Shown here: positions 44,836 through 49,794 of the stretch, piece by piece
Layout: each line of letters opens with the position of its first letter
How positions within the stretch are numbered: the stretch's first letter is position 1
Assembly (NCBI GenBank): GCA_016930555.1
Contig: JAFGGM010000051.1
Location: 4,715 to 68,714, forward strand
Length of the DNA stretch: 64,000 bases
From: Candidatus Bathyarchaeum sp.
GTDB taxonomy: Archaea; Thermoproteota; Bathyarchaeia; Bathyarchaeales; Bathyarchaeaceae
Reading direction: 5' to 3'
Made by a program: the position numbers and the translations under genes
Notes under the pieces: model-generated
The model's database searches: none
What the model saw: the letters and a program-made list of their open reading frames with translations, nothing else
Told to the model about the DNA's origin: nothing

Positions 44836-46104
44836 TTAGTCACCATTCAATGCTTCTTTAACTAATTTTAGAGCCTTCTCTTTTTCTTCCCAGTCAACAA
44901 ATAAAAGAATACTGGAAGTGATTGTGATAAGTCCAAAAATATTTATACAGTTCACTCGTAGTGCCTCGGAGATTCTTCCTGTGAGACCTGGCGTCTTTTC
45001 TAATCCAACACCTTTGATTTTGAGGAAAGCTAACTGTTTTCGGACAGACATAGCCAAAGTTTCCACATGACTCAATATCACGTTATGCACTTCCTCCAGA
45101 AGCACCTTGGAATCAGAGTTCTCTGAGGCATAAAGAATCAAAGAATCATAATTCAGGGACAAGCCCAGCAGCTTTGCATGTTTTTTCACCGTTTCAGCAA
45201 GCTGTTTTATGACATCGGGATTCTCTGACACTCCTATCCCTACGACAGTGATGGACATTCCAGAAGATGGATATTCTAGCTCTACATCCAAGTCTGCTGA
45301 GAGGGAGCCCGTGATCAACGTTCCTTCCGCATTTAGGTTGCCGTGACTATGTTTGATTACTCTGACTTTCACTGAGTCATCTTTGTATCGTAGCGCCTTC
45401 CTGTGAATGAATTTTGTTCCCGAATCGGCTAATCCAACTAAACTGTTCACGTCAATTTCTTGAAGCCGTTCAGGAGCGGCTATCACCTTGGGGTCTGCTG
45501 ACATAATTCCTTCAGCGTCCGTAACAAGAATAAGCTCATCAACGTCTAGAGCCTTCGCTAGGATAAATGCAGTTGTATCACTTCCCCCTCTTCCCAACGT
45601 CGTTACTCGGTTATCTTTTGTTTTACCCACGAAACCAGCAATCACGGGAATAATGCCCTTCTCTACGAGAGGAAGAACATTCTGTATAGCCCGTTCGTAG
45701 CAGACATCCAAGATGGGGTTAGCATCAGAAAACGAGTTATCTGTTATGATGGGCCATTCCGCGTCATGCGGATCAACGTAACGGGAATCCACTCCCTGCG
45801 CCTTTAGTGCCGCAGCGATTATTCTGATGCTTGTTCTTTCGCCCATGGCCAGAATCTCATCTAAGTCTGTCTTGTGTAACTTGCCATTGGAGCTGTTCTT
45901 TGCAGCATGAAAAAGTGTGTCGGTTGTTTTTCCCATAGCCGAAACGATGACCGCTATTTGGGTTCCCTTCTTTGCTTCTTCAGCAACTGCTGTAACTGCC
46001 CTCAATATCCGTTCGTGGTCTCCGAGGCTGGAGCCACCAAATTTAACCACAAGTCTTCTGCGATTTTTTTCAACGTTTTCTTTCATATCAACTAAACCCT
46101 CCAA
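44836..46104 (-). CDS. Aspartate kinase with C-terminal ACT domains
   Basis: 422 aa with LVVKFGGSSLG and GRGGSDTTA motifs. The probable ATG is at 46086. Confidence 0.85.
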   Translation of the reverse strand: MEGLVDMKENVEKNRRRLVVKFGGSSLGDHERILRAVTAVAEEAKKGTQIAVIVSAMGKTTDTLFHAAKNSSNGKLHKTDLDEILAMGERTSIRIIAAALKAQGVDSRYVDPHDAEWPIITDNSFSDANPILDVCYERAIQNVLPLVEKGIIPVIAGFVGKTKDNRVTTLGRGGSDTTAFILAKALDVDELILVTDAEGIMSADPKVIAAPERLQEIDVNSLVGLADSGTKFIHRKALRYKDDSVKVRVIKHSHGNLNAEGTLITGSLSADLDVELEYPSSGMSITVVGIGVSENPDVIKQLAETVKKHAKLLGLSLNYDSLILYASENSDSKVLLEEVHNVILSHVETLAMSVRKQLAFLKIKGVGLEKTPGLTGRISEALRVNCINIFGLITITSSILLFVDWEEKEKALKLVKEALNGD

Positions 46105-46333: not shown

Positions 46334-47686
46334 TTAAGTTTTAGGCAAATTTTTGAGGTAGTCTTTTGCTTCGTTGATGCTTTGGAAACCGTATTTGATT
46401 TCGGGGAAACTTTGCCTCAGTTTGATGATGTCTTTCTTCACGTCAGTAGAATTCCGTTTACCCTTTATTACTTCTAAGATGAGAGAACAAAGAGTTTCTA
46501 TGTCGTTGGGTTTGAAGCCTCTGCGGGTCACATCTTGGAAACCGATTCTTAGACCTGATGGGTCTCCACGATTGTGCTGATTGTCGTAGGGTAGAAGGTT
46601 CTTATTCAAAATTATGTTGGCGTCCTCAAGGTCGGAAGCAAGTTTTTGTCCTCCACCATAATCTCTGACATCAACAACAATCTGATGGGACATCGTAAAC
46701 CCATTCTTTCTGCCTAAGACTTCAATGCCATTCTCAAAGAGGCACTTACCTGCAGTTTGCGCATTCCTAATCGTCTGCTTAGCCAAATCTTTACCATACA
46801 GTTTTAGTTCCAAAGCAGCTAAACCCAAAGCAGGAAGCCTTCCAAGGTGAGAATTAGAGGTAGTCATAGGAAAAACTGCCTTCTGCACCTTCTTGATTGC
46901 CTTCTTCATCCGTTCATCTTCACAGTTAGCGAGGATAACGCCGCCTTGAGGTCCTGGAAAAGTTTTGTGGGTAGATGCAGTTATGAAGTCTACTCCATCT
47001 CCAAATGGGTCCTGAAATTCTCCGCCTGCAATCAAGCCCAGCACATGAGCTGCATCATAAACTATGTAGGCTCCTGTTTCTTTAGCAACCTTCACTAATT
47101 CTTTGACGGGATGGGGAAACTGGAAGACACTGCCTCCGAAAGTAACTATGCCTGGTCTAGTTCCCTCAATTATGGTTGCAGACTTTTCCGCATCAATGTT
47201 GAGTTCGTTCACATTGTAAGCATGATTGACAGTTTCTAACCCCAAGACTTTGCCTGCTAAGCCAGAGTAGTCATGAGTGATGTGCGCTCCAGCACTGAGA
47301 GGTAGAACTACCATTCGATTGTTTTTTGTTGCTGACGAGAGTCCCTTGAATGTTGCGAGGTTTGCATGGGTTCCTGAAACAAGCCTAACGTCAGTCCAGT
47401 TGCATCCGACCAGTTCTTTCATCAGGTCTGCTGTGTAGTTTTCGATTTTGGTCATGTATTTTTGTCCTTGATAGTGCCTTGCTTTAACGTGTCCATTAAG
47501 GTCGTTTTCGCCTTCAGCATATCTGGACTCCAAGTCATGTGTTTGGCTGAGCATTTCCTCTACTGCAGGAGATTTGAGTCCCTCACTTGCAATCAGGTTT
47601 ATGCACTCTTTTCCTCGGTATCGTTCATGAGCTTCGCTGGCGGTAATCAACCCAAGAGCTAACTTAAAGAATTCTTTTTCAACCAT
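46334..47686 (-). CDS. glyA: Serine hydroxymethyltransferase
   Basis: 450 aa. The PLP-lysine motif is ASTHKTFPGPQGG, and the INLIASEG N-terminal motif is present. Confidence 0.9.
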   Translation of the reverse strand: MVEKEFFKLALGLITASEAHERYRGKECINLIASEGLKSPAVEEMLSQTHDLESRYAEGENDLNGHVKARHYQGQKYMTKIENYTADLMKELVGCNWTDVRLVSGTHANLATFKGLSSATKNNRMVVLPLSAGAHITHDYSGLAGKVLGLETVNHAYNVNELNIDAEKSATIIEGTRPGIVTFGGSVFQFPHPVKELVKVAKETGAYIVYDAAHVLGLIAGGEFQDPFGDGVDFITASTHKTFPGPQGGVILANCEDERMKKAIKKVQKAVFPMTTSNSHLGRLPALGLAALELKLYGKDLAKQTIRNAQTAGKCLFENGIEVLGRKNGFTMSHQIVVDVRDYGGGQKLASDLEDANIILNKNLLPYDNQHNRGDPSGLRIGFQDVTRRGFKPNDIETLCSLILEVIKGKRNSTDVKKDIIKLRQSFPEIKYGFQSINEAKDYLKNLPKT

Positions 47687-47893
47687 TAGTCTTCCTCTCA
47701 GAAACTTATGGGCATATTGTTGGTTTTGAGCATTACGTCACTTATTTATATTTTCTTCACGGCGAGGTAACTTGTTAGTTGCTTTGAGGGACTCTTCTTG
47801 GTTAGCCATGAAACCTGTGACATTATCAGCAGTCAATATTTTGATTTCATAAAGCTTTTTTTATTTTTGATACTGATTTAATTTGTGGAAACA

Positions 47894-48040
47894 ATGAGCA
47901 AAAGGAAATTACATTACGGAGTACGCCTAACTACGGACCAACTAAAATACTTGAAAACTGTGGGCAAACCTTCCGAGTGGATACGGCAAGCAGTAGACGA
48001 AAAAAAAAGACGCGAAGAAATTAACCGCAGATCAAAATAA
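47894..48040 (+). CDS. Small ribbon-helix-helix (CopG/Arc-like) protein, unlisted 48-aa ORF
   Basis: MSKRKLHYGVRLTTDQLKYLKTVGKPSEWIRQAVDEKKRREEINRRSK. The basic beta-strand segment (GVRLT) followed by helix-turn-helix-length helices is the usual RHH layout. It is too short for the track. Confidence 0.4.
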   Translation: MSKRKLHYGVRLTTDQLKYLKTVGKPSEWIRQAVDEKKRREEINRRSK

Positions 48041-48260
48041 GCAAGCAAAAAAATCAGCAACCATATAATCCACGACAACAATCCCCAAAAGCAGATAAAA
48101 TAATATCGTTTTTCAGAACATAAGCTTAACATTTTGTGAAATAAATATAGGCAACTTTGCTCTCACCTACCGCAAACTAACTATTAAGAATAAACATGTA
48201 TAAAAAGTCAAAAAATTTCTGTCGGAAAAATTCTTTTTGAAAAGCTTTTTCCTCAAGAAA

Positions 48261-48300
48261 GTGTCGGATTCATTAAACATGATGGTTTTTAGTCCGACAC
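48261..48300. promoter_or_regulatory. Perfect 8-bp inverted repeat abutting the fae-hps TATA box (candidate operator)
   Basis: GTGTCGGA (48261-48268) and TCCGACAC (48293-48300) are separated by 24 nt. A third half-site, TGTCGGA, is at 48220-48226. The TATA-like TTTTTATAT starts at 48302. Confidence 0.4.
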
Positions 48301-48301
48301 A

Positions 48302-48310
48302 TTTTTATAT
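48302..48310 (+). promoter_or_regulatory. TATA-like box for the long form of fae-hps
   Basis: TTTTTATAT lies about 40 nt upstream of the ATG at 48346, inside an AT-rich 300-bp intergenic region. Confidence 0.4.
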
Positions 48311-48345
48311 GTGATCTGTGAAATGCTCTCATCGAGAGTGATAAT

Positions 48346-49794
48346 ATGTCGGAATATGGCGGTAAAAAACCAGAAACAAAAGAAGAATTCATCAGATTGC
48401 TGGCGACAGCCAAGAAAGAGGAAAGAAAACTAAGAAGGACACAAGGGAGTAGGTCATCAAAACCGACAATTAAGGGTACTGCCGAGATTTTAGGAATTCA
48501 CCGTGATACCCTTTATCAGTGGATGAGAGAGTTTGATGTTGACTTTTCAGAAGTCAATGAAAGAAAACTAGTTTTTGAAGAAGCCATCAAACCCAAAGAG
48601 CACACATATCTGATTGGTGAGGCGCTAATTGGTGACGGAAACGAAATTGCTCACATCGATTTGTTGATTGGAGACAAAACAGGACCCATCGGGCAAGCCT
48701 TCGCTAATGGCTTATCAAACTTATCTGCCGGGCACACACCCCTTCTTGCAGTTATAAGACCAAATCTGCCACCAAAACCTCACACACTTCTGGTGCCGAA
48801 GGTTACTGTGAAAAATATGGAGCAGACAGGAAAAATTTTTGGTCCTGCTCAGGCGGCAGTAGCAAAGGCGGTTGCTGATGCTGTAGAGGAAGGAATTATT
48901 CCAGAGAATAAGGTTGACGATTGGGTGATCATATGCAGCGTCTTCATTCATCCTCAAGCTAAGGATTACCGCAGCATCTACCACTACAATTATGGAGCCA
49001 CAAAACTGGCGCTACAGAGAGCGTTAGACAATTATCCATCACTACAGAAGATAATGTATGATAAGGACAGGGCAAAGCATCCGATAATGGGCTTCAAAGT
49101 CCCTAGATTATGGAGACCTCCTTACCTTCAGATAGCTCTAGACAATCCTAACTTGGAAGGCGTCAAGAAAATCATAGGTGGACTACCAGAAAGTGACAGG
49201 ATCATACTTGAGGTCGGCACACCCTTGCTTAAGAAGTACGGCGTGAACGTCATTCGCGACATACGAAAAGTATCAAAAGACATGTTCATCGTAGCAGACC
49301 TAAAGACGCTGGACGTTGGAAAAGTCGAGGTTGACATGGCCTATGAGGAAACAGCAGATGCTGTAGTAGTCGCAGGTTTAGCAACCTCAGAAACCATTGA
49401 TAAATTCATCAAAGAGGCAAAAAGGCTGGGCATCTACGCAGTAATGGATCTGATGAACGTTGACGATCCTGTTGCAAAGCTTAAGTCACTTCAGAAATTG
49501 CCCGACGTAGCAATTCTGCACAGAGCCATAGATGCTGAGAAGACAGGCAAGACACGATGGGAACTAATCAAAGAGATGAGGCAAACATTTCAAGGTCATA
49601 AGTTTTTGATAGCAGTTGCTGGCGGAATAACTCCTGATACTGCGCCTGAAGCGTTGGCAAACGGAGCAGACATCATTATTGTGGGACGATATATAACACA
49701 ATCTAAGGATGTGGAACGGGCAACTAGAGAATTCCTGAAGAGCACACGAGAAATGGCAGAAGACATAGATCTTTTCAGAGTCCACGTGGAATAA
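48346..49794 (+). CDS. fae-hps: Formaldehyde-activating enzyme / 3-hexulose-6-phosphate synthase fusion with an extra N-terminal HTH segment
   Basis: The Fae core is [27 protein letters not shown]...[13 protein letters not shown]. The Hps/OMPDC-like half is [14 protein letters not shown]...[10 protein letters not shown]...[10 protein letters not shown]...IIIVGRYIT. Residues about 40-65 ([23 protein letters not shown]) form a classic HTH. Confidence 0.85.

Follow-up and report, generated by a model that had tools for sequence, protein, structure and literature searches.

A predicted helix-turn-helix domain on the Fae-Hps enzyme of Bathyarchaeia and a conserved motif array at its promoter suggest a self-regulating trigger enzyme

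Introduction

Trigger enzymes, a concept credited to Commichau & Stulke (2008, as cited in PMC5397151), include bacterial proteins with fused DNA-binding domains: BirA, NadR and PutA (PMC5397151). An archaeal case is RbkR, a riboflavin kinase that carries a winged helix-turn-helix (HTH) domain at its N terminus. The sites of RbkR, which were predicted by comparative genomics, lie a few nucleotides upstream of promoter elements; autoregulation has been proposed in 36 genomes; and the substrate CTP modulates DNA binding (PMC5397151). Our search of the literature found no description of an HTH-Fae-Hps fusion.

In the reverse ribulose-monophosphate route, 3-hexulose-6-phosphate synthase (Hps) converts hexulose-6-phosphate to ribulose-5-phosphate and formaldehyde, and formaldehyde-activating enzyme (Fae) traps the released formaldehyde on tetrahydromethanopterin. 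The Fae-Hps step is the point at which this toxic product is handed on. Bathyarchaeia are among the most abundant archaea of anoxic sediments and are barely cultivated; to our knowledge, almost nothing is known of their gene regulation. Here, we describe a Bathyarchaeia gene in which a predicted HTH domain precedes the two enzyme domains, together with an array of short motifs at its promoter and in its first codons.

Results

A complete Fae-Hps enzyme preceded by 87 residues

The window is a 64-kb stretch of a Candidatus Bathyarchaeum sp. contig. Its open reading frame at 48346..49794 (+) encodes 482 residues and a stop codon, with an ATG start. Assignment of the whole gene as HTH-linker-Fae-Hps draws on the reading-frame listing, on domain matches, and on homologues that are 73-97% identical at 100% coverage. 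The Fae domain, residues 88-248 (48607..49089, +), matches PF08714 (243 bits, residues 90-248), TIGR03126 (264 bits), and the structure 1y5y (E 3.5e-46). The Hps domain, which has the OMP-decarboxylase fold and spans residues 259-482 (49120..49791, +), matches PF00215 (OMPdecase; 126 bits, residues 259-462), TIGR03128 (142 bits), and the Hps structures 9lj9 (E 2.3e-31), 3f4w and 3ajx. The Pfam and NCBIfam models cover both domains, in line with the initial annotation, which had described a complete Fae core and a complete Hps half.

The order of the domains, Fae and then Hps, is that expected of the bifunctional enzyme. The corresponding equivalog model, NF009833, scores 607 bits against a cut-off of 274, with model positions 2-390 of 392 aligned to residues 88-481. 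As this match begins at residue 88, 87 extra N-terminal residues remain, close to the approximately 85 first estimated. These residues are conserved, and the architecture is not the two-domain one without any other module.

The N-terminal extension is under purifying selection

The comparative sequence data indicate that the 87-residue extension is a real, translated protein segment under purifying selection. All of the best 120 database homologues (73-97% identical) cover it fully. It is in frame with Fae at 70 Bathyarchaeia genome loci (~70 species) and, among the fused loci found, is met only in Bathyarchaeia. The dN/dS ratio of the N-terminal domain is 0.089, with dS saturated over residues 2-67; the linker stands at 0.342 and the enzyme core at 0.044. 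Across 34 diverse sequences, 13 residues are invariant: P9, L19, S37, P40, T41, H52, R53, D54, T55, L56, Y57, W59 and F67. At H52, R53, D54, T55, L56 and Y57, synonymous codons nonetheless vary freely, with a relative codon entropy of 0.83-1.0. Retention of the extension in orthologues had been put forward as a check on its authenticity, and the species count, the dN/dS ratio, and the free synonymous change at invariant residues all bear it out. The linker, residues 68-87 (48547..48606, +), differs among orthologues in both sequence and length, and its residues 73-86 have a pLDDT below 50 in a full-length AlphaFold model.

Homologues of the extension were also sought apart from the enzyme. A word-based search with residues 1-86 returned 12 short proteins, all of them contig-truncated fragments of the same fusion, and no stand-alone homologue. 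An exhaustive profile search of 1.84 billion proteins likewise returned no close stand-alone relative and no other fusion partner; its matches were generic HTH proteins, apart from P0186, which was discarded as a low-complexity false positive.

Possible in-frame starts before the Fae core are the ATG of codon 1, a TTG at codon 18 (48397), and the ATG of codon 60 (48523). M60 had been taken as the sole alternative start; the TTG at codon 18 had been overlooked, and M60 is not the sole alternative. Several features favor a start at 48346. Start codons align across loci (ATG in 25, GTG in 39, TTG in 4), and a Shine-Dalgarno-like element, GAGAGTGAT (48334..48342, +), lies 3 nt before the start codon in the window. 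At least 50 of the 63 orthologous loci have a string of this kind in the 18 nt that precede the start. The TATA-like box that had been placed at 48302-48310, at promoter distance from 48346, is present as TTTTTATAT (48302..48310, +), 36 nt upstream of the start codon, and a TATA box is conserved ~40 nt upstream across loci. In 7 of the 63 orthologues, codon 60 is CTN or TTT and so not a start codon, and M60 therefore cannot be a general start.

Residues 1-67 are predicted to form a helix-turn-helix domain

The HTH segment named in the initial annotation is present in the ORF. AlphaFold2, run on a 34-sequence alignment, models residues 1-67 (48346..48546, +) with a pLDDT of 88. The predicted layout comprises: a disordered basic head (residues 1-11); a long helix (12-33); a basic loop; a helix (42-49); a turn; and a recognition helix (53-62). 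In this three-helix fold, the HTH consists of helices 2 and 3, and M60 lies within the predicted recognition helix, as had been claimed of the last helix. Assignment of residues 41-62 (48466..48531, +) as the HTH proper draws on the model helices, on sub-threshold Pfam HTH scores, and on matches to NtrC1 and NtrC4. The full-length model has a pLDDT of 66, which is too poor to judge how the HTH docks on the enzyme.

Every one of the top Foldseek neighbors in the PDB is an HTH domain that binds DNA (sigma region 4, Fis, NtrC, TetR and Rex), at E values of at least 0.3. The best PDB sequence matches are the Fis-type DNA-binding domains of NtrC1 and NtrC4, over profile positions 16-66. Among Pfam HTH models, none reaches its gathering score, and sub-threshold matches fall on residues 37-66: HTH_28 (21.8 bits; cut-off 25), HTH_Tnp_1 (20.2; 24.1), HTH_17 (20.1; 27), HTH_23 (19.7; 24.6) and HTH_8 (18.9; 22). 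The profile search described above gives matches at E ≤1e-3 on profile positions ~30-70. Proteins matched in this way bear above-threshold GP3_package, HTH_17, HTH_8 or HTH_29 domains that align on the HTH, which amounts to detectable homology to bona fide HTH proteins. The earlier description of a Fis/excisionase-style HTH is thus upheld by the predicted fold, by its structural and sequence neighbors, and by the profile search, and falls short on the Pfam scores. In sum, residues 1-67 are a predicted HTH domain, nearest to the DNA-binding domains of Fis/NtrC and sigma region 4.

The C-terminal DNA-binding domains of Fis and NtrC (HTH_8; PDB 1ety, 4l5e, 3e7l and 4fth) likewise consist of a long helix followed by a helix-turn-helix. 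The Bathyarchaeia core, G(I/V)HRDTLY.W..(E/D)F.V, resembles the Fis/NtrC pattern, for example NtrC1 LGIPLRTLYKRLKEYGI, with scores that are not significant (HTH_8 as above; PDB E 0.2-0.5). The Fis/NtrC domain is C-terminal and sits on an AAA+ activator, whereas the Bathyarchaeia domain is N-terminal and sits on an enzyme.

An array of TGTCGG(A) motifs surrounds the start of the gene

Five copies of a 6-7 bp motif, TGTCGG(A), occur at conserved positions, with orientations + + - + -. S1 (TGTCGGA, 48220..48226, +) is an exact match ~126 nt upstream of the start, with a copy at this position in 40 of 63 loci. S2 (TGTCGGA, 48262..48268, +) is found in 47 of 63. S3 (48293..48299, -), which reads TCCGACA on the + strand, stops 2-4 nt short of the TATA box, at the BRE position, and is present in 60 of 63. 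S4 (TGTCGGA, 48347..48353, +) overlaps the start codon (A-TG TCG GA-A, Met-Ser-Glu) and is present in 56 of 63. S5 (48463..48468, -) reads CCGACA on the + strand, forms codons P40-T41, and is present in 49 of 63. Modal spacings are 42 bp (S1-S2), 32 bp (S2-S3), 53 bp (S3-S4) and 116 bp (S4-S5), near whole helical turns, and both the position peaks and the spacings are tight across loci. S1 and S2 are absent from part of the deep lineages.

As judged from the compared loci, the array is conserved and specific to the fae-hps promoter, and it co-varies with a residue of the recognition helix. In the window, 4 of 9 TGTCGGA copies fall within 134 bp at this promoter, and S2 and S3 form an inverted repeat, GTGTCGGA-N24-TCCGACAC, the sole such inverted pair. 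Across the 70 loci, 174 of 319 motif copies fall between -220 and +15, a region that makes up 2.3% of the sequence. A TATA-like element follows S3 by 2-5 nt in 59 of 60 loci. When TCCGACA followed by a TATA box was sought in the window and in 708 kb of Bathyarchaeia loci (together ~770 kb), 58 of 59 matches were the fae-hps promoter itself; the remaining match lies ~80 nt upstream of the fae-hps start of locus L023, on the opposite strand. We also considered TCCGACA as a general promoter or BRE element and rejected it: each of the five remaining window copies stands alone inside an ORF, and no other promoter in the ~770 kb has the S3-TATA arrangement.

A metagenome scan with a clade-specific 17-mer as query was used as a regulon search. 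Among the matches listed, all 20 with S2 (and with S4 where the sequence reached it) were the fae-hps promoter, the other 100 were chance matches without S2 and S4, and no other promoter carried the composite site. Locus L044 has an additional motif cluster at -1.7 kb, as do L047 and L055 at -0.56 kb; these clusters lie inside coding sequence and are not interpretable.

A conserved ORF for a 51-aa product lies upstream of the gene (47885-48040) and is adjacent to it in 24 loci. Its product matched no family or structure in our searches. By eye, it has a ribbon-helix-helix look.

Motif copies inside the coding sequence are constrained as nucleotides

Within the coding sequence, the nucleotides of S4 and S5 are themselves under constraint. 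In 63 of 68 loci codon 2 is TCG, though the start codon before it varies, and residue 3 varies between G, E, D and V, yet 59 of 63 loci have G as the first base of its codon. Ranked by synonymous entropy, lowest first, among 254 conserved codons, S2 (the serine of codon 2) is 1st, P40 is 2nd and T41 is 5th. CCG accounts for 94% of P40 codons and ACA for 83% of T41 codons. Control codons vary freely: CCG makes up only 41% at P9, and the commonest codon of T45 and T55 accounts for 31-32%.

Recognition-helix residue 58 varies together with motif position 6

Residue 58 of the predicted recognition helix, Q58 in the window, is Q or E where motif position 6 is G, and R where it is T. The 35 loci with Q58 hold 87 TGTCGG and 3 TGTCGT copies; the 17 with E58 hold 46 and 0; and the 8 with R58 hold 4 and 18. 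At the locus level this association gives a Fisher p of 1.4e-8, a value to be read with the phylogenetic relatedness of the loci in mind, since the counts overstate the number of independent events. In the tree of the enzyme core, R58 with TGTCGT appears at at least three separate places, and an E58/TGTCGG pair is nested within one R58 group. Three further R58 contigs served as a prospective test, and all carry TGTCGT copies (4, 1 and 2), two of the three being mixed. The covariation is imperfect: R58 lineages usually retain a G-type S3, and one R58 locus, L065, has neither the TGTCGG nor the TGTCGT form.

Discussion

A phased motif array that co-varies with the HTH domain makes it most likely that the enzyme switches its own gene on or off. 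DNA-binding-type and catalytic domains share one polypeptide, a single ORF fused in frame at 70 loci. On this comparative evidence, we consider it probable that HTH-Fae-Hps is a self-regulating trigger enzyme that recognises TGTCGG(A) at its own promoter and, as part of the same reading, that the three-part HTH-linker-Fae-Hps protein is specific to Bathyarchaeia.

In the proposed mechanism, a Fis/NtrC-like HTH (residues 1-67) would be tethered via a flexible linker of ~20 residues to a normal Fae-Hps. The HTH domain would recognise the heptamer TGTCGG(A), five copies of which surround and invade the enzyme's own core promoter: inverted S3 would occupy the BRE position; S4, at the start codon, would lie at approximately +15 from the expected transcription start; and inverted S5 would fall in the HTH coding sequence. 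The spacings of 42, 32, 53 and 116 bp correspond to approximately 4, 3, 5 and 11 helical turns. This would place the five sites along a single face of the double helix, so that an oligomeric enzyme could hold several simultaneously. Fae crystals contain five chains per entry, and Hps-type barrels are dimers; the site orientations, + + - + -, are at odds with a simple symmetric oligomer. Occupancy of S3 and S4 would hinder TFB/TBP and RNA polymerase, and the most likely outcome would be negative autoregulation tuned by the ligand or the oligomeric state of the catalytic domains. Candidate effectors are formaldehyde, H4MPT species, and Ru5P/Hu6P. In this manner, the trigger enzyme would tie how much of it is made to the flux of formaldehyde and pentose. 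What we infer here is the physical binding, repression over activation, the effector, and the stoichiometry.

A more elaborate form of this mechanism, which we hold tentatively and judge somewhat short of even odds, is that oligomeric Fae-Hps wraps its own promoter. Several tethered HTHs of a single assembly would sit simultaneously on five helically phased half-sites, which extend over the BRE/TATA region, the start codon and the HTH's coding sequence, and transcription would be set by how much formaldehyde, H4MPT or pentose phosphate passes through the catalytic domains. As half-sites lie within the HTH coding sequence, part of the operator would be written in the codons of its own reader. 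If wrapping were true, archaeal C1/pentose metabolism would have its first trigger enzyme.

It is also conceivable, though we think it unlikely, that the HTH is real and that another transcription factor uses the TGTCGG array as its operator, be it the product of the 51-aa ORF or one whose gene lies elsewhere. The HTH on Fae-Hps may then have other DNA as its target, anchor the enzyme to the nucleoid, or make contacts with other proteins. The 51-aa ORF, just upstream and conserved in 24 loci, could itself specify a further regulator; the array, however, is present in nearly all of the ~70 lineages with the fused domain, and the ORF product matches no DNA-binding family. The sub-threshold HTH scores leave room for a non-canonical role, and the covariation at residue 58 has exceptions. 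Nevertheless, residue 58 follows motif position 6 in at least three separate parts of the tree, which would be unexpected were another protein reading the motif, and two motif copies within the HTH's own coding sequence travel with the HTH.

Far less probable is a role for the repeats as RNA, in which UGUCGG at the start would pair with CCGACA 116 nt downstream, or with an upstream copy if that is transcribed, and the alternative helices would gate translation initiation. The predicted minimum-free-energy fold of 48328-48480 does include an S4:S5 helix, but this fold is no stabler than shuffled sequence (z = -0.43), and the helix has only 6 bp, a loop of ~110 nt, and a non-complementary adjoining base. 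Were 48205-48365 transcribed, S2:S3 would form a 10-bp hairpin (z = -2.3); S1-S3, however, are probably outside the mRNA, because they lie upstream of a TATA box that is positionally conserved in 59 of 60 loci. The intergenic region contains several T5 tracts. Spacings of whole helical turns and a G-to-T change that tracks a protein residue are properties of DNA and protein. Finally, that the extension is an annotation artefact, with the true start at M60 and the upstream frame open by chance, as the 423-aa NCBI entries MBN1784916.1 and WNZ30459.1 in the same 90% clusters would have it, is already refuted by the comparative data: other entries, such as WGM88963.1, have 482 aa; residues 2-67 evolve at a dN/dS of 0.089 with saturated dS; the 13 invariant residues tolerate free synonymous variation; the start codons align behind a Shine-Dalgarno-like element; and position 60 is CTN or TTT in some orthologues.

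This has a practical consequence for annotation, as some public records begin the protein at M60, halving the predicted DNA-binding domain, and none annotates the extra domain. The trigger-enzyme reading offers a concrete and testable candidate regulator-operator pair, with a defined domain, a 6-7 bp motif, and five mapped positions. If a specificity code links residue 58 to motif position 6, it is already readable from natural variation, and a Q58R swap is predicted to alter motif specificity. The operator-like copies within the coding sequence can be recognised as the gene's most synonymously frozen codons. If true, the reading would extend the trigger-enzyme principle to archaeal C1/pentose metabolism.

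Comparison with described systems places the protein as follows. Canonical two-domain archaeal Fae-Hps (NF009833 / PRK13307, 392 positions) has the same Fae and Hps domains in the same order, and its model lacks the 87 N-terminal residues of the Bathyarchaeia protein. RbkR is, like the predicted Bathyarchaeia protein, a metabolic enzyme of archaea that bears a DNA-binding domain at the N terminus. Its riboflavin kinase is unrelated to Fae-Hps, however, and its domain is a winged HTH rather than a Fis/NtrC-like three-helix domain. RbkR uses palindromes of 16-20 bp and controls a multi-gene regulon, whereas Fae-Hps has five dispersed copies of 6-7 bp, two of them in the coding sequence, and its own promoter as the only candidate target so far.

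BirA, NadR and PutA have no sequence relationship to HTH-Fae-Hps, act at bacterial sigma-70 rather than archaeal TATA/BRE promoters, and belong to the metabolism of vitamins, of cofactors or of amino acids rather than to C1/pentose metabolism. Their function is experimentally proven, whereas a regulatory function of HTH-Fae-Hps is deduced. These bacterial enzymes share with HTH-Fae-Hps, as predicted, a covalent link between a DNA-binding domain and active catalytic domains, and in the bacterial cases the output depends on the metabolic state of the enzyme. PutA and NadR are, like HTH-Fae-Hps, three-part proteins that combine one DNA-binding domain with two catalytic domains.

A helix-turn-helix domain is fused to Fae-Hps

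The fae-hps gene (48346-49794, forward strand) encodes a 482-residue protein with a complete formaldehyde-activating enzyme domain (Fae, residues 90-248; Pfam, 243 bits) and a complete 3-hexulose-6-phosphate synthase domain of the OMP-decarboxylase fold (Hps, residues 259-462; Pfam, 126 bits). Residues 88-481 align end to end with the 392 positions of the NCBIfam bifunctional Fae/Hps equivalog (607 bits; cut-off 274). The first 87 residues are covered by no enzyme model, in agreement with the two complete halves and additional leading residues described in the initial annotation. In a separate observation, the Fae domain matches residues 129-286 of a 290-residue PDB chain named 'Avd' (8ub7_B and related entries; E = 1.8e-45; 45 chains in 9 entries), which is presumably Avd joined, naturally or by engineering, to a pentameric Fae.

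Orthologues were expected to carry the extension if it is genuine, and they do: query coverage is full in all 120 best database homologues (73-97% identical), which share the N-terminus MS(E/G)(Y/F)DGKKPET.... A profile of residues 1-70, searched against archaeal and bacterial genomes with one per species, recovers 70 loci, 63 of them full-length, and in 70 of 70 the domain runs in frame into Fae. In a comparison of eight orthologues of moderate divergence, residues 2-67 have a dN/dS of 0.089, the linker (residues 68-87) has 0.342 and the enzyme core 0.044, all at dS ~1.5. The invariant residues H52, R53, D54, T55, L56 and Y57 of the putative recognition helix have near-free synonymous codons (relative codon entropy 0.83-1.0). 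As judged from these sequence comparisons, the extension is real protein, and the reality of the fused helix-turn-helix (HTH) domain is close to certain. The 70 loci are labeled Bathyarchaeia, Bathyarchaeota or Thermoproteota in 69 cases and as a "Krumholzibacteriaceae" MAG in one. This last contig (L055, DATKLC010000060.1), filed under a 'Candidatus Krumholzibacteriaceae bacterium' MAG, carries a typical Bathyarchaeia HTH-fae-hps gene and promoter and is probably a binning error.

The start codon (ATG, GTG or TTG) occupies the same aligned position across loci, with the Shine-Dalgarno-like sequence GAGAGTGAT ahead of it in at least 50 of 63. The TATA-like box reported ahead of this start, TTTTTATAT, is present at 48302-48310. 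M60, the in-frame ATG at 48523, had been called the sole alternative start; this was incorrect, as an in-frame TTG also occurs at codon 18. Codon 60 is CTN or TTT in 7 of 63 orthologues, making initiation there impossible in those proteins. A spurious upstream start is refuted by the comparative data. NCBI entries within the same 90% clusters nevertheless disagree, giving either 482 residues (WGM88963.1, Ca. Bathyarchaeum tardum) or 423 (MBN1784916.1 and WNZ30459.1, which begin at M60). The M60 start in some PGAP records cuts the HTH recognition helix in half, and all entries compared are named for Fae/Hps only, the extra domain being named in none.

The HTH segment described in the initial annotation is present and attracts approximately ten Pfam HTH models, all under their gathering scores (HTH_28, 21.8 versus 25; HTH_17, 20.1 versus 27; HTH_8, 18.9 versus 22). 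AlphaFold2, using a 34-sequence alignment, models residues 1-70 with pLDDT 88: a long helix (12-33) follows a disordered head, and a basic loop connects it to a second helix (42-49), from which a three-residue turn leads to a third (53-62). In a low-confidence model of the full-length protein, the confidence of this domain is kept and residues 73-86 fall below pLDDT 50, which fits a flexible tether. No Foldseek match in the PDB reaches a significant E-value, which is unsurprising with a query of 70 residues, yet the top-ranking ones are without exception HTH modules that bind DNA (sigma region 4, Fis, NtrC, TetR and Rex). By sequence, the closest PDB matches are the Fis-type DNA-binding domains of NtrC1/NtrC4 (E 0.2-0.5, profile positions 16-66). 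When 1.84 billion representatives are searched exhaustively with HMMER, no close relative stands alone and no second fusion partner turns up; the matches are fragments of the same fusion and generic HTH proteins (the latter at E 1e-13 to 1e-3), which Pfam assigns to GP3_package terminase small subunits, tandem HTH_17 proteins and HTH_8/HTH_29 proteins. Taken in aggregate, the predicted fold and the PDB, HMMER and Pfam matches indicate that the extension belongs with HTH domains of the Fis / NtrC / small-terminase type and is private to the Fae-Hps fusion. Among the distant profile matches, P0187, P0190, P0191 and P0205 have an unusual architecture, in which 3-7 tandem HTH_17/HTH_23-type repeats of ~55-60 residues each make up nearly the whole protein.

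A conserved motif array surrounds the fae-hps start

Alignment of upstream regions across loci identifies a conserved heptamer, TGTCGG(A), with five copies (S1-S5) around the fae-hps start. S1 (48220-48226) and S2 (48262-48268) lie on the forward strand and are present in 40 and 47 of the 63 full-length loci, respectively. S3 (48293-48299; 60 of 63) is inverted and sits 2 nt ahead of the TATA box; S4 (48347-48353, forward; 56 of 63) overlaps the start codon; and S5 (48463-48468; 49 of 63) is an inverted 6-mer core formed by codons P40-T41. Modal spacings from S1 to S5 are 42, 32, 53 and 116 bp, or 4.0, 3.05, 5.05 and 11.05 turns of 10.5 bp. This integral-turn phasing suggests that one multivalent assembly may occupy several sites at once. 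Crystal entries of Fae contain five chains each (1y5y/1y60: 10 chains in 2 entries). Fae is a homopentamer, and barrels of the Hps type form dimers.

The array is concentrated at this promoter. Four of the nine exact heptamer copies in the window fall within 134 bp there, the other five being single and inside ORFs, and S2-S3 is the only such inverted pair within the 64 kb. Of the 319 exact copies in the 70 loci, 174 lie within -220 to +15, which is 2.3% of the sequence. In ~770 kb, TCCGACA followed by a TATA box occurs at the fae-hps promoter only, the exception being an opposite-strand copy in the same upstream region of one locus (L023). When metagenomes are scanned with the S3-plus-TATA 17-mer, 100 of the 120 matches listed are unrelated chance occurrences without S2 and S4, and all 20 listed matches with S2 are fae-hps promoters. 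The lineage with T58 (L049, L051) has lost most upstream copies and kept S4 and S5. Extra clusters of 2-3 TGTCGGA/TCCGACA copies occur 0.56-1.7 kb upstream of fae-hps, within neighbouring ORFs, in L044 (4325-4406; 301-aa ORF), L047 (5442-5515; macro-domain-like ORF) and L055 (5438-5495; apparently also macro-domain-like); these may be chance occurrences or additional binding sites.

The motif also extends into the coding sequence. Among 254 conserved, degenerate codon columns, synonymous entropy is lowest for Ser2 (TCG 95%), second lowest for P40 (CCG 94%) and fifth for T41 (ACA 83%). The control codons vary freely, with CCG making up only 41% at P9 and the commonest codon of T45 and T55 reaching 31-32%. 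Residue 3 varies between G, E, D and V, but 59 of 63 loci keep G as the first base of its codon. The frozen codons and this conserved base indicate that the coding sequence is constrained to spell the motif.

Residue 58 co-varies with the motif

Residue 58, at position 6 of the predicted recognition helix (HRDTLY-X-W), co-varies with position 6 of the motif in the upstream region. TGTCGG and TGTCGT copies number 87 and 3 in the 35 loci with Q58, 46 and 0 in the 17 with E58, and 4 and 18 in the 8 with R58. At least two T-type sites are found in 7 of 8 R58 loci versus 0 of 55 others (Fisher p = 1.4e-8, ignoring phylogeny). When the enzyme cores are arranged in a neighbour-joining tree, the combination of R58 and T-type sites occupies no fewer than three separate places: a group of L026/L030/L033 plus L027/L031, inside which the E58/G-type pair L039/L045 is nested; L041; and L067. 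Three further R58 contigs, used as a prospective check, have 4, 1 and 2 T-type sites, two contigs being mixed, and S3 is usually still G-type in R58 loci. The association is strong, yet there is no clean switch. In L065 (R58), TCCGGCA / CTGGCAGA replaces the usual copies at about -60 to -100 of the start.

A putative autoregulatory enzyme

These features suggest a mechanism in which the fused HTH would bind the TGTCGG array at its own promoter. S3 sits at the BRE position. With the TATA centre at ~48306, transcription would be expected to start ~26 nt downstream, placing S4 at about +15. Occupancy of these sites should hinder TFB/TBP and RNA polymerase, which would result in negative autoregulation. 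We consider it reasonably probable that the fused HTH both binds the array and controls expression of the gene that encodes it.

It is possible that another factor reads the array. One conserved 51-aa ORF (METMSKRKLHYGVRLTTDQLKYLKTVGKPSEWIRQAVDEKKRREEINRRSK; 47885-48040, forward strand), ~300 nt upstream of fae-hps, is found at the same position with 68-92% identity in 24 Bathyarchaeia loci and, by eye, may resemble a ribbon-helix-helix protein. However, this ORF has no match in Pfam, NCBIfam or PDB and matches no DNA-binding family; it is much rarer across loci than the array; and a separate factor leaves the residue 58 covariation unexplained. Action of the repeats by RNA pairing is very improbable: an S4:S5 helix is part of the predicted fold and, were their region transcribed, S2 and S3 would pair as a hairpin, but the fold with S4:S5 has z = -0.43, the conserved TATA box is downstream of S1-S3, and both phasing and covariation with a protein residue are traits of DNA and protein.

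Autoregulation by the fused HTH would act within a one-carbon pathway. In the established pathway, Hps converts hexulose-6-phosphate to formaldehyde and ribulose 5-phosphate, and Fae captures the formaldehyde on H4MPT. Divergently upstream, on the reverse strand, lie glyA, encoding serine hydroxymethyltransferase (46334-47686; syntenic in 22 loci), and an aspartate-kinase-like gene (44836-46104; syntenic in 19). The divergent glyA fits a methylene-H4MPT context; as serine hydroxymethyltransferase and Fae both feed the methylene-tetrahydropterin pool, its linkage to fae-hps may be functional.

Literature searches for the HTH-Fae-Hps fusion found no description of it. The protein matches the model of the canonical Fae/Hps family but departs from its two-domain architecture. 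Its putative mode of action resembles that of BirA, NadR, PutA and the archaeal RbkR, all of them trigger enzymes (PMC5397151); in each case the sequence is unrelated and the enzyme different. The operators of these four are one or two palindromes, whereas the putative fae-hps operator would be made up of short, scattered copies, two of which lie within the coding sequence.
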